Shown here piece after piece: positions 18,206 to 27,875 of a stretch of 64,000 bases of DNA (positions are counted from its first letter, which is position 1; each line of letters opens with the position of its first letter). The position numbers were made by a program, and so were the translations under genes. Location: assembly GCA_963827275.1 (NCBI GenBank), contig CAWHAA010000004.1, forward strand, positions 448,001 through 512,000. Direction: 5' to 3'. The notes beneath the pieces are model-generated. The model was given only the letters and a program-made list of their open reading frames with translations. It made no database searches and had not been told where the DNA came from. Origin of the DNA: an uncultured Spirochaetota bacterium. GTDB lineage: Bacteria; Spirochaetota; UBA4802; UBA5550.

Positions 18206-18262
18206 TTCAATTACTGATCTGTCAGTATTTGATATGATACTCGCGTAATAAAGTAACATATT
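18206..18262 (+). promoter_or_regulatory. Putative AraC operator/promoter of the ceramidase gene
   Basis: TTCAATTACTGATCTGTCAGTATTTGATATGA, 26/32 identical to 22537-22568; -10-like CATATT at 18257. Confidence 0.7.
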
Positions 18263-18349
18263 ATTATTGAATCCGTCCCGCCGGTCTGTAATGATGATTG
18301 AATGTTTGCTTAAAAAGTTTTTGTGCAAATCTATTCCAGGAGCTGGATC

Positions 18350-20527
18350 ATGAGTAATTATCTACCTAAGTATTCATCGTTGTTAGGAATCATACTCTGC
18401 GTTGTGCTGATCGTTCTCCCCGGCTGTGAAAATAATTCTGACGATTCGCTGCTTTCCCTCCTCGGCCTCGGCACCGGTCCGTCTAATCCCTATAATGGGA
18501 CCGGCCAGGGGGCGCTCCCCGGAGTCCCGGCTTCAGACGGCGGGAACGTATACCTCGTCGGCACCGGCATTTATGATATTACCGGTCCTGCCGCAGAGAT
18601 AGGGATGATGGGGTACGCCGATATGAACCAGAAGACCTCCGGTATCCACACGCGGCTCCGCGCACGCGCGTTCGTCATCGGCGACGGGAGAAGCAGGATG
18701 GTTTTCGTGAGCGCTGATCTCGGGATGATATTTCAGGTCATCAAGTCAAAGGTGTGCGAAAAAATAAGCCGGAACCCGGAGCTTGCGCGCTTCTACAATG
18801 AGAAGAACGTGATCCTCTCGGCAACGCATACCCACAGCGCCCCGGGTGGCTACTCCGGCTACCTGCTGTACGATGTCACGATAGCCGGGTTCATCAGGGA
18901 GCACGCGCAGACCATCATAGACGGCATATACAAATCCATACTGAATGCGCATAACAACGTAAAGCCGGGGAAGGTCCTGCTTGCGAAAGGGACGCTGGAC
19001 AATTGCGGCGGAAACCGTTCCCCGCTCGCGTATGACAACAACCCGGCGGCGGAGAAAGAGGCATATGGCAGCACGACCGACAAGTCCTTCACCCTGCTCA
19101 AGCTTGTCACCCTCGACGGCGAAGAGATTGGGATGGTCAACTGGTTCGCCGTCCACCCCACCTGCATCGGCCCGGTGAATACGCTCATCAGCAGCGACAG
19201 CAAGGGGTATGCCTCGTACCTGTTCGAGAAGGACAGGGGCACCGATTACCTCGCGACCCGCACCTTCGTGGCGGCGTTCGCGCAGGCGAACGCGGGGGAC
19301 GTTTCCCCTAACGTTGATTACGGGCAGGCGCCGGCCTACGTGGATTTTGCCCATAACCCGAGCCTGAAAAACGCCGTCCTCGGGCAGTATGCCAAAGCGA
19401 AAGAGCTGTATGACGGCGCCAGCAATGAACTGGCCGGCCCGGTGGAATTCCGTCACGAGTACCTTGACATGGGCAGCGTGTTGGTGGAAGAGGCGGGCTG
19501 CACCACCTGCGCCGCCGCCATGGGCGCGTCGTTCTCCGCCGGCAGCGTTGTCGATAATCCGAGCCCCGCGCCGCTCTTTCCTGCAGGCACCACCGTCGAC
19601 AGCCTGAACTGGAGTGATAACGCCGCATCCACCTTTCTTCAAACGTTCCTGAGCGGGATATTCGCCCCCTTCTGGCCTGCAACGCAGAACGCGGCATACA
19701 AGGCCTGCCACGCGCAGAAGCCTATCCTCATCCCCACGGGGCTCGTGTCCGTGAACCTGAAAAAGATCCCCATGACGCCCGAGGTGATGCCGCTCCAGGT
19801 CGTGAAAATCGGGAGCCTCGCGCTTGTTGCGGTTCCCAACGAGGTCACGACCATGTCGGGAAGGCGGCTTAAAAAAATGGCGCTTGATGAGCTTAAGACC
19901 GCCGGCGTTGATTCCGTGGTCATCGCTGCCATGGCAAACGCCTATACCTCGTATCTCGCGACCCCGGAAGAATATGCGACGCAGTCGTACGAAGGGGCCT
20001 GCACCCAGTTCGGTCCGAATGAGCTTGCCGCGTACCTCCAGGAATACAGGAAGCTGTGCCGCGCGATCGTGGACGGGACCGATATCGCCCCCGGCCCGGC
20101 GCCGCGGGACATCTGGAATGAAACAGTTGATTTTTCGGCGAAAGTCGTGCTGGACGATAAACCGATCGGGAAAAAATTCGGGGATGTCGCTACCCAGCCG
20201 AACGCGGCCTACACGCGCGGCGATATCGTGACCGTGCAGTTCTGGGGCGGACATCCCAATAACGATTACCGGACACAGGGGACCTTCCTTGTCGTTGAGA
20301 AGATCGTTAACGGGAGCGCCGTTGCGGTGGCACGGGACTGGGACCCCGAAACCACCTACCAGTGGATGAGGAACGGGGTGTCCGCCTCAAAGATAACTAT
20401 TACGTGGGACACCGGAAATGCGGCGCCGGGGACCTACCGGATCCGTCACCTGGGTAACTGGAAATCGGGATGGACCGGGATCATAAGCCCCTACGAGGGC
20501 GTGTCGAATACCTTTGCGGTGAAGTGA
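18350..20527 (+). CDS. Neutral/alkaline ceramidase, lipoprotein
   Basis: Lipobox LPGC; GIYDITGP, GMMGYA, RLRARAF, SATHTHSAPGG, NWFAVHPT, GDVSPN, EVTTMSGRRL, YEGACT, C-terminal Ig-like domain. Confidence 0.93.
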   Translation: MSNYLPKYSSLLGIILCVVLIVLPGCENNSDDSLLSLLGLGTGPSNPYNGTGQGALPGVPASDGGNVYLVGTGIYDITGPAAEIGMMGYADMNQKTSGIHTRLRARAFVIGDGRSRMVFVSADLGMIFQVIKSKVCEKISRNPELARFYNEKNVILSATHTHSAPGGYSGYLLYDVTIAGFIREHAQTIIDGIYKSILNAHNNVKPGKVLLAKGTLDNCGGNRSPLAYDNNPAAEKEAYGSTTDKSFTLLKLVTLDGEEIGMVNWFAVHPTCIGPVNTLISSDSKGYASYLFEKDRGTDYLATRTFVAAFAQANAGDVSPNVDYGQAPAYVDFAHNPSLKNAVLGQYAKAKELYDGASNELAGPVEFRHEYLDMGSVLVEEAGCTTCAAAMGASFSAGSVVDNPSPAPLFPAGTTVDSLNWSDNAASTFLQTFLSGIFAPFWPATQNAAYKACHAQKPILIPTGLVSVNLKKIPMTPEVMPLQVVKIGSLALVAVPNEVTTMSGRRLKKMALDELKTAGVDSVVIAAMANAYTSYLATPEEYATQSYEGACTQFGPNELAAYLQEYRKLCRAIVDGTDIAPGPAPRDIWNETVDFSAKVVLDDKPIGKKFGDVATQPNAAYTRGDIVTVQFWGGHPNNDYRTQGTFLVVEKIVNGSAVAVARDWDPETTYQWMRNGVSASKITITWDTGNAAPGTYRIRHLGNWKSGWTGIISPYEGVSNTFAVK

Positions 20528-26499: not shown

Positions 26500-26624
26500 A
26501 CGAATATATGCCCGGATGCGGGGCTGCCGCGCGGCGCCGGCGCGGACAGGGGTGATTTTGTTATGGACAGGCGGGGCCTTGCGGGGTAAAGATTGAATAC
26601 TGCCAGGGGGGAGGTGCAGATACG

Positions 26625-27875
26625 ATGAAGGAAGAAGCTCAATACAAAGTTTACGGTTACCGGTGGGTCGTCCTGCTGGTGTTCGTAGTAATCACGGTAA
26701 TAATCCAGATGCAGTGGCTCACCTTCGCGCCGATCGCCAGGCAGGCCAGGGCCTTCTACGGCGCCACCGCTTCGCAGATCGACCTGCTTTCCGAGATCTT
26801 CATGTATGTGTTTCTGGTGGCGTGCATTCCCGCGGCCTATATCATCAACAGGTTCGGGATCCGCGTCGGGATCGGGATTGGCGCGGTTTTTACCGGCGTG
26901 TTTGGCCTTACCAAGGGGGTCTTCGCTGACAGCTACTCCATGGTGGTCGCATCGCAGATCGGGCTGGGGATCGCCCAGCCTTTCATTATCAGCGCTGTGA
27001 CCAAGGTGGCGGTGCACTGGTTTCCCATCAATGAGCGGGCGACCGCCGTGGGCCTTGCCACCCTCGCGCAGTTCCTGGGTATGATTATCGTGAACATCGT
27101 CACCCCGTTTATCGTGACCGTGGTAACGACGGCCGGCGTTGAGCGCTACGACCTGCAGGGCATGCTCCTCGCGTATGGCATCGTGTCGGTTGCGGGCGCG
27201 CTGCTCTTTCTGGTTTTCATGAGGGAAAATCCGCCGACGCCTGCGGGCCCGGAGGGAGACGAGGAGCGCTTCCTTACGGTCGCGGGGATCAGGCATATTT
27301 TCAGGCACCGGGACATGCTCCTGGTCATGGTCCTCTTCTTTCTCGGTCTGGGGATGTTCAACGCCATCGCGACCTGCATCGACCAGATCAGCGAAGCCAA
27401 GGGTTTTACCAGCGACCAGAGCGGGATGACCATGGGGCTGATGCTCATCGCCGGCATTGTCGGCGCCGTTGTGGTGCCCCCCCTCTCCGACAAGCTGCGG
27501 AAGCGGAAGCCCTTCCTGGTCGTTTCCCTCGCGCTCCTCATTCCGGGGATCATCGGCATGACCTTTGTGACGGAGTACCCCCTGATGCTGGCGTCCGCCG
27601 GGGTAATGGGGTTTTTCCTTCTCGGGGCGGCAGCCCCCATCGGCTTCCAGTACGGCGCCGAGGTCAGTTTCCCCGCACCGGAGTCGCTGTCGCAGGGCAT
27701 CATCCTCTTTGCCGGGCAGATATCGGGGATCATCTTCGTTACCGGCATGAACAGCCTCGGTATGATCGTGTCCCTGAAAATATTCATCGTCCTGGCGGCG
27801 GTGAACCTGTTATGCTCCCTGCTGCTGAGAGAATCGCCCAGGATGCTGGCCGGCGATACGCAGCGGAACCCGTGA
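26625..27875 (+). CDS. MFS transporter, FLVCR/SLC49-like
   Basis: About 12 TM; YKVYGYRWVVL...QWLTFAPI...FYG...IDLLS...WFPINERATA resembles the FLVCR family N-terminal half. Confidence 0.88.
   Translation: MKEEAQYKVYGYRWVVLLVFVVITVIIQMQWLTFAPIARQARAFYGATASQIDLLSEIFMYVFLVACIPAAYIINRFGIRVGIGIGAVFTGVFGLTKGVFADSYSMVVASQIGLGIAQPFIISAVTKVAVHWFPINERATAVGLATLAQFLGMIIVNIVTPFIVTVVTTAGVERYDLQGMLLAYGIVSVAGALLFLVFMRENPPTPAGPEGDEERFLTVAGIRHIFRHRDMLLVMVLFFLGLGMFNAIATCIDQISEAKGFTSDQSGMTMGLMLIAGIVGAVVVPPLSDKLRKRKPFLVVSLALLIPGIIGMTFVTEYPLMLASAGVMGFFLLGAAAPIGFQYGAEVSFPAPESLSQGIILFAGQISGIIFVTGMNSLGMIVSLKIFIVLAAVNLLCSLLLRESPRMLAGDTQRNP

Follow-up and report, generated by a model that had tools for sequence, protein, structure and literature searches.

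Our analysis of a 64,000-nucleotide stretch from an uncultured Spirochaetota bacterium (contig CAWHAA010000004.1, positions 448,001 to 512,000; "the window" below) indicates that a cassette of kinase, aldolase, aminotransferase and transporter genes, joined to a ceramidase gene by a common upstream box, very probably acts on sphingoid bases. Open reading frames and profile searches place six genes on the plus strand, in the order and families that a first-pass annotation had read from the letters: a neutral ceramidase, a seven-transmembrane (7TM)-GAF-AraC regulator, an FGGY kinase, a class II aldolase, a class III aminotransferase and a major facilitator superfamily (MFS) transporter. We favor a sphingoid-base substrate because the box is linked to ceramidase genes, because the kinase family pairs with sphingosine-1-phosphate (S1P) lyase, because homologues of SphB, SphC and SphD share operons with the cassette, and because the transporter keeps four of the five FLVCR amino-alcohol residues and the aldolase has lost the Phe131 wall of FucA. 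The same substrate had been proposed at first pass, and it is now better supported, by the S1P lyase and SphB/C/D links and by ceramidases that carry the box away from the cassette.

How would such a cassette dispose of a sphingoid base? We lean towards the following complete route. The surface ceramidase would free a fatty acid and a sphingoid base from ceramide, the membrane-bound AraC protein would sense the base as its inducer and activate both promoters via the common box, and the FLVCR-like MFS protein would import the base. Phosphorylation of C1 by the FGGY kinase would come next, and the aminotransferase would replace the 2-amino group by a keto group, so that the intermediate resembles ribulose or fuculose 1-phosphate with a long chain. 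The aldolase would cut this intermediate between C3 and C4 into dihydroxyacetone phosphate (DHAP) and a fatty aldehyde, which for C18 phytosphingosine is pentadecanal. Since retro-aldol cleavage needs a 4-hydroxyl group, sphingosine and sphinganine would be excluded from the last step, and this branch would serve the 4-hydroxy bases of plant and fungal sphingolipids, beside the genome's two kinase-S1P lyase operons.

The box that joins the ceramidase to the kinase operon, also noted at first pass, is real and conserved in the genus. Its dyad core reads TCAA-(3)-CTGA-N5-TCWG-(2)-TTTGA, the copies at 18206-18234 and 22537-22565 agree at 24 of 29 bases (the best of 500 shuffles reached 21), and no other site in the 4.13 Mb genome agrees at 23 or more. 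Direct comparison revealed the box, which is not among the top 20 families of a repeat finder. Both copies, 5' of the ceramidase and 5' of the kinase, are kept in 10/10 other genus genomes examined (13 loci, most of which served as training for the box matrix, built from 21 sites). Below, L plus a number denotes a locus, G a genome (G000 being that of the window) and C a contig of the latter. Outside the training set, the matrix finds matches 5' of ceramidases unlinked to the cassette in G021 (score 26.9), G049 (37.9) and G004 (42.2), and the box also precedes the kinase in G032, where the ceramidase converges on a regulator-kinase-MFS-HAD (haloacid dehalogenase) block. As background, 5 positions in 8.3 million score at least 20, three of them being the two known sites and the reverse reading of another. 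Because the box precedes these unlinked ceramidases and the G032 kinase, co-regulation of ceramidase and kinase appears to survive rearrangement. Scores of at least 20 occur in 19 of 24 loci with a 7TM-GAF-AraC gene and in 0 of 96 without one, a count that includes some training sites and duplicates and in which most of the 96 loci belong to other phyla; this regulator likely binds the boxes. In the window itself the ceramidase and kinase genes look like separate units joined by the box rather than one operon, since a terminator-like hairpin follows the ceramidase. Further box-like sites in the genome (C9:133749, C4:197734 and three weaker ones) mark no clear lipid gene set and were not counted; the gene at C9:133749 has no Pfam or NCBIfam match.

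The ceramidase has both Pfam domains of CerN-type enzymes above cut-off and matches the P. aeruginosa ceramidase 2zws at E 7e-129; the THTHS, NRS, VHPT, NEVT, YTSY and YEG motifs, catalytic in neutral ceramidases, align, so ceramidase activity is predicted, although the score of 443 misses the NCBIfam equivalog cut-off of 1200. Its open frame begins at GTG 18323, and the ATG at 18350 is preceded by AGGAG. Across 61 related genomes, 29 with the aminotransferase and 32 without, a full-length ceramidase is present in 17/29 versus 0/32, and outside the genus in 5/16 versus 0/28. The class of G062 gives 4/6 versus 2/55. Kin are not independent in these counts, so that p values overstate the association. 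Five genomes with short, distant PF04734 matches (G008, G015, G039, G041 and G047; E 1e-20 to 1e-40) were set aside ahead of the 17/29 count, G008 and G039 among them being without the aminotransferase, and G045, with only a 47% paralogue, was scored as without it.

The second line of evidence comes from the kinase. The pairing of a FucK/RhaB-type kinase with a sugar isomerase is not what we find: the window kinase, 25% identical to FucK, falls under all the cut-offs, and no isomerase is among the recurrent neighbors. In a quick tree with seven E. coli sugar kinases and long outgroup branches it lies outside the E. coli enzymes, the split between the family and these having a support of only 84; its sister clade (98) contains lyase-adjacent kinases together with cassette kinases, and the clade outside both includes one kinase that adjoins a lyase. 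A paralogous operon in the same genus encodes a kinase, a pyridoxal-phosphate (PLP) lyase, a TetR protein, a kinase, an aminotransferase and a RuBisCO-like protein, and its lyase matches the Symbiobacterium S1P lyase at E 8e-194. The window's genome carries two operons of FGGY kinase and S1P lyase (G000 C5:693355-696470 and C6:137998-141102). More widely, the kinase family adjoins S1P lyase in 61 of 80 metagenomic lyase loci (40/46 among loci of at least 8 kb), and 4 of the 80 also hold an MFS gene whose product is 47-53% identical to that of the window. S1P lyase requires an amino-alcohol phosphate, and since it is the partner of this family, the FGGY kinases very likely phosphorylate sphingoid bases themselves. 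For the same reason we mildly favor phosphorylation before transamination; the first-pass annotation had the reverse order, and kinase-first is at least as likely. Neither the window locus nor any of the 80 cassette loci has an S1P lyase in the unit. An insertion rich in hydrophobic residues, at about residues 116-140, is common to the whole kinase family, and a lipid-binding role for it is a guess; a structure search with a model of the kinase (pLDDT, predicted local distance difference test, 91) returned the expected fold only. We also considered an endonuclease/exonuclease/phosphatase protein beside the kinase in L014, L088 and L091 as a sphingomyelinase, but its match (E 9e-4 only) makes it a lead at most.

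Moreover, the cassette meets the Pseudomonas sphingosine system in Burkholderiaceae. The survey took the best 80 of at least 588 aminotransferase loci, which come from Spirochaetota, Chloroflexota, Bacillota, Desulfobacterota-like groups, Pseudomonadota, Actinomycetota and Asgard archaea. Among these 80, the aldolase is present in 61, the kinase in 56, the MFS gene in 42 and a RuBisCO-like protein in 8. Cultured strains with homologues include Duganella sp. SG902, Emergencia timonensis, Ornatilinea apprima and Butyrivibrio fibrisolvens. With the sphB, C, D, A and R queries taken from a P. aeruginosa record, homologues of SphB, SphC (42-46%) and SphD (43-53%) were found directly after the cassette, on the same strand, in three Burkholderiaceae loci (L084, L086, L087), and two others have a divergent AraC gene whose product is 38-39% identical to SphR (E 1e-66), compared with 24-27% for four AraC proteins of the RuBisCO-like branch. 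Of the Burkholderiaceae genomes that have the aminotransferase, 5 of 6 carry a SphD-like gene, compared with 14 of the 195 that lack it. L108 has a SphA-like gene (29%), the aminotransferase of L093 is placed after beta-oxidation genes, and in one Burkholderiaceae operon with Sph genes an aldehyde dehydrogenase is nearest to class 3 and fatty-aldehyde enzymes. The same five P. aeruginosa queries (SphR, SphA, SphB, SphC, SphD) gave no tblastn match at E 1e-5 in the window's genome. As separate observations on the surveyed loci, GH31 glycosidases stand beside the cassette at L026:14332-16599 and L032:11293-14412, the latter fused to an SCP2 lipid-binding domain, and in L122 the cassette sits on a conjugative plasmid of Burkholderia ambifaria with a short-chain dehydrogenase/reductase (SDR), an aldehyde dehydrogenase, a short DUF962 gene and IS5 elements.

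Among PDB entries the MFS protein is closest to FLVCR2 and FLVCR1 (E 1e-34 to 5e-31; next best 2e-7), and of the five ligand residues of FLVCR2, W102, Q191 and F324 are kept in 61/61 homologues and Q447 in 59/61, with Y325 replaced by Asn in 61/61. The aminotransferase is closest in sequence and fold to glutamate-semialdehyde aminomutase (GSAM), with D-phenylglycine transaminase also near, among 46 PDB matches. It is not HemL, scoring 276 where the family cut-off is 527, and the true HemL (575) is encoded separately in a hem operon on C6 of the same genome. Compared with GSAM it lacks the SPVR motif, and has 50 extra N-terminal residues and a C-terminal Arg; the invariant Arg457 aligns with the GabT Arg that binds the 2-oxo acid, and together with the missing SPVR this fits a true transaminase. 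A structure search with its model (pLDDT 88) gave expected folds only.

The aldolase is 32% identical to FucA and retains the catalytic Glu, the three metal-binding His and the phosphate site of the aldolase pathway: FucA N29, S71, E73, H92, H94 and H155 are kept in 18/18 alignment rows, and S72 and G44 vary. By a Cahn-Ingold-Prelog derivation made in this analysis, 2-keto phytosphingosine (D-ribo) is 3R,4R, like fuculose and ribulose, the basis of the comparison being the stereochemistry of FucA, so the first-pass argument from D-ribo stereochemistry is sound. The position of Y113 holds Asp (once Glu), that of F131 holds Ser in 16/18 rows, and there is no Phe at 206. In FucA the space for the aldehyde is limited by a wall made up of F131 and F206, and the F131A variant accepts bulky aldehydes (PMC3962088). 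A second aldolase-like gene without the catalytic Glu and metal His occurs at L122:11444-12091 and L093:11143-11796 and likely encodes a pseudo-enzyme subunit.

Could the substrate be a sphingoid base and the chemistry different? The aldolase-fold protein might be a dehydratase, an isomerase or a similar enzyme acting on the ketone of a dihydroxy base, or the PLP enzyme might be a phospho-lyase that eliminates phosphate and ammonia from the 1-phosphate of the base. The context evidence points to sphingoid bases in general and not to a 4-hydroxyl group, the loci with a RuBisCO-like protein (8/80, with an aldolase scored by the same test in L021 alone) indicate that the intermediate has other fates, and the best NCBIfam match of the aldolase, an epimerase subfamily (1.4e-38), is level with FucA (4.1e-38), both below cut-off, with Y113 replaced by Asp. 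We nonetheless regard such chemistry as unlikely: the residue at FucA position 73 is Glu in 18/18 rows, where AraD and SgbE have Asp, the phosphate-site Asn29 and Ser71 are kept, the MtnB dehydratase match is far lower (2.5e-23), and the PLP enzyme is nearest to GSAM and D-phenylglycine transaminase, no phospho-lyase being found among its 46 PDB matches.

It is possible, and we propose it only tentatively, that the aldolase route is one part of an oxygen-independent toolkit for sphingoid bases in bacteria and archaea, in which an FGGY-fold long-chain-base kinase feeds three exits: S1P lyase, transaminase plus aldolase, and transaminase plus RuBisCO-like protein. The aldolase exit would let 4-hydroxy bases avoid alpha-oxidation of a 2-hydroxy acid, and the RuBisCO-like exit would take bases without the 4-hydroxyl, possibly by enediolate chemistry that splits C2-C3. 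A sister cassette of kinase, aminotransferase paralogue and RuBisCO-like protein is present in L102, L103 and L105-L109; the gene behind it often encodes a 358-residue protein, for which a phospholipase C/P1 nuclease-like fold is a lead, and L106 and L107 have a FadL-type porin in addition.

Several observations weigh against a sphingoid-base substrate or the route proposed for it. The ceramidase adjoins the cassette in only 4 of the 80 loci, all from close spirochaete relatives, and the co-occurrence with ceramidases envisaged at first pass, which holds in the two lineages above, mostly fails outside the spirochaetes, where cassette genomes checked singly have a clear neutral ceramidase in 1 of 15; uptake of free bases or a different amidase would have to serve the others. 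Identity between the window kinase and the lyase-adjacent kinases is only 30-36%, and none of the latter falls within its clade; the aminotransferase of Anaerolineae is not associated with S1P lyase (2/7 versus 32/114). The Burkholderiaceae link leads to a system studied on sphingosine, which the proposed chemistry could not cleave. Glycosidases, ABC transporters and other sugar genes are frequent neighbors of the cassette, which fits glycosphingolipids but also plain sugars. Finally, the analogy with FumI drawn at first pass stands as a chemical precedent and not as kinship, since the aminotransferase is GSAM-like and FumI (PDB 6hbs), at E 3e-28 versus 1e-62 for GSAM-like kin and rank 30 of the 46 PDB matches, is not its orthologue. 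Hydrolysed fumonisin, the substrate of FumI, also has no C1 hydroxyl.

The cassette might instead serve a small amino-polyol or amino-sugar alcohol, a ceramidase having been recruited to its regulator only in these spirochaetes. In favor of this stand the absence of a ceramidase from most cassette genomes and the frequent neighboring glycosidases; small sugars are also the usual substrates of FGGY kinases and class II aldolases, and FLVCR proteins carry small amino alcohols (PMC11168923). We judge this explanation quite improbable, since it leaves three unrelated sphingoid markers (ceramidase, S1P lyase and SphB/C/D) in three phyla without explanation, as well as the opening of the aldolase wall and the insertion common to the kinase family.

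With a sphingoid base as the substrate, the cassette might also run in the opposite direction, condensing DHAP with a fatty aldehyde and aminating the product to a 4-hydroxy base for the cell's own sphingolipids. Both the aldol and the transamination step can run backwards, a HAD phosphatase gene is frequently found after the MFS gene, the genome has a serine palmitoyltransferase (SPT)-like gene beside an SDR gene, and in two Anaerolineae loci the aminotransferase adjoins SDR and SPT-like genes. We consider this anabolic or remodelling role highly improbable: the kinase, the importer-type MFS protein and a surface hydrolase under the same control speak for uptake and breakdown, the aldehyde dehydrogenases of the Burkholderiaceae operons are nearest to fatty-aldehyde and class 3 enzymes, and the adjacency in the two Anaerolineae loci (L055 and L080) was downgraded as a signal, SPT-like matches being found in 114 of 121 Anaerolineae genomes. 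As to synthesis itself, the SPT-like gene of the window's genome (L218, G000 C1:122000-126700) has as neighbors a divergent SDR gene and a long gene of acyl-ligase type, and may serve the organism's own sphingolipid synthesis, and the Anaerolineae matches (G330-G449), whose best group scores 490-566 bits, under the 640 cut-off, suggest that such synthesis may be common in that class.

That the genes are chance neighbors with a dead aminotransferase is scarcely credible, although the assembly does contain a frameshift, because the aminotransferase is intact in relatives (84-93% identity) and in near-identical strains, and gene order and boxes are conserved. Relative to the intact L003 and L004, the frameshift consists of two extra bases, at about 26108 and 26125-26127, and contigs of near-identical strains lack them in three of four sequencing runs (three studies), the fourth listing neither; it is very likely an assembly error, so the real frameshift that would have undermined the first-pass proposal is not what these data indicate. 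A single additional base at 28951 likewise interrupts the chemoreceptor gene next door; it is absent from 4/4 such runs, and we take it, too, for an assembly error. The closest relatives of the genome are labelled Spirochaetota, and near-identical DNA is present in bioreactor, sediment, freshwater, manure and wastewater metagenomes, with no RNA dataset among the listed holders.

Table 1. Features of the locus, with coordinates in the window.
Feature	Position	Strand	Basis
Box 1, candidate operator, 5' of ceramidase	18206..18237	+	direct comparison, conservation
Neutral ceramidase with lipoprotein-type signal (LPGC, by eye)	18350..20527	+	PF04734 and PF17048
Terminator-like hairpin and T run, 3' of ceramidase	20593..20616	+	consensus match only
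Membrane-bound 7TM-GAF-AraC regulator, likely box binder	20764..22398	+	profile match; box co-occurrence
Box 2, candidate operator, 5' of kinase operon	22537..22568	+	direct comparison, conservation
FGGY-fold kinase, candidate long-chain-base kinase	22613..24214	+	below every sugar-kinase cut-off; family partners S1P lyase elsewhere
Class II FucA-type aldolase	24226..24915	+	retains the catalytic Glu and three metal-binding His; aldehyde wall open through Y113 to D and F131 to S
Class III PLP aminotransferase, GSAM-like, not HemL	25031..26499	+	apparent frameshift at about 26108-26127
FLVCR-like MFS, candidate sphingoid-base importer	26625..27875	+	best PDB matches FLVCR2/1
Chemoreceptor split by one extra base	28084-29641		after MFS
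HAD-IB phosphatase, possible accessory gene	29726..30436	+	HAD closely 3' of MFS in L007, L012, L100, L111, L222

Around the cassette, most genus loci have a chemoreceptor gene 3' of the MFS gene, and its product may detect the substrate; in the window a perfect 19-base inverted repeat with a 4-base loop (27979-28020) lies directly 5' of this gene. Upstream, a FliK-like gene (16420-17821) apparently lies in two frames, probably through an assembly indel, and a group II intron reverse transcriptase/maturase (TIGR04416, 389 bits, cut-off 300) is found at 8845-9927.

For the consumption of sphingoid bases by bacteria, this locus gives a complete, assayable four-protein hypothesis. If the route is correct, it would add a new chemistry of sphingolipid degradation and a new class of kinase, and thousands of proteins that now carry the name glutamate-semialdehyde aminomutase, also in gut and rumen bacteria, would gain a function (7734 of 8000 scored candidates reach E 1e-60 or better, true HemL proteins being part of this number). 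If the toolkit exists, it would fill a gap, the recycling of sphingolipid backbones from plants and fungi where oxygen is absent, and would provide an orphan RuBisCO-like clade with a lipid substrate. Our search of the literature available outside subscription papers found no description of the cassette, of FGGY sphingoid kinases or of a transamination-aldol route, and a term search of a 2025 review of sphingoid-base metabolites (PMC11765627) gave no occurrence of "transamin" or "deaminat".

Among the nearest known systems is the SphR regulon of P. aeruginosa (CerN, SphA, SphBCD; PMC5150637, PMC11893366), which likewise combines a secreted neutral ceramidase, an AraC-family regulator and base-handling genes; the window locus differs in its 7TM-GAF-AraC regulator and in its enzymes, a kinase, a transaminase and an aldolase that are all cytoplasmic. 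The ligands of SphR are sphingosine, dihydrosphingosine and phytosphingosine (PMC5150637), and the product of P. aeruginosa sphingosine metabolism was, according to PMC11893366, not yet identified. The canonical exit, in which sphingosine kinase and S1P lyase yield phosphoethanolamine and hexadecenal (PMC5150637), would share with the proposed route the ceramidase, phosphorylation at C1 and a carbon-carbon cleavage to a fatty aldehyde; the window kinase has the FGGY fold, and the predicted cut, at C3-C4 after deamination and releasing DHAP, contrasts with the PLP-dependent cut at C2-C3. The L-fucose/D-arabinose FucK-FucA pathway and related ketose-1-phosphate aldolase pathways resemble the cassette in their FGGY kinase and Zn class II aldolase, with Glu73, His92, His94 and His155 and the predicted 3R,4R geometry; the cassette differs in having no isomerase, in that the transaminase would make the ketone, and in the replacement of Y113, F131 and F206 of the aldolase. 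Canonical sphingosine kinase, for its part, has the diacylglycerol kinase fold. For the aminotransferase, HemL is closest in sequence and fold, and FumI (reaction in PMC8954241) is the chemical likeness, a class III PLP enzyme that converts the amine at C2 of a sphingoid-like chain to a ketone, as is predicted here. The component folds are known, and the pathway that they would form together would be new.

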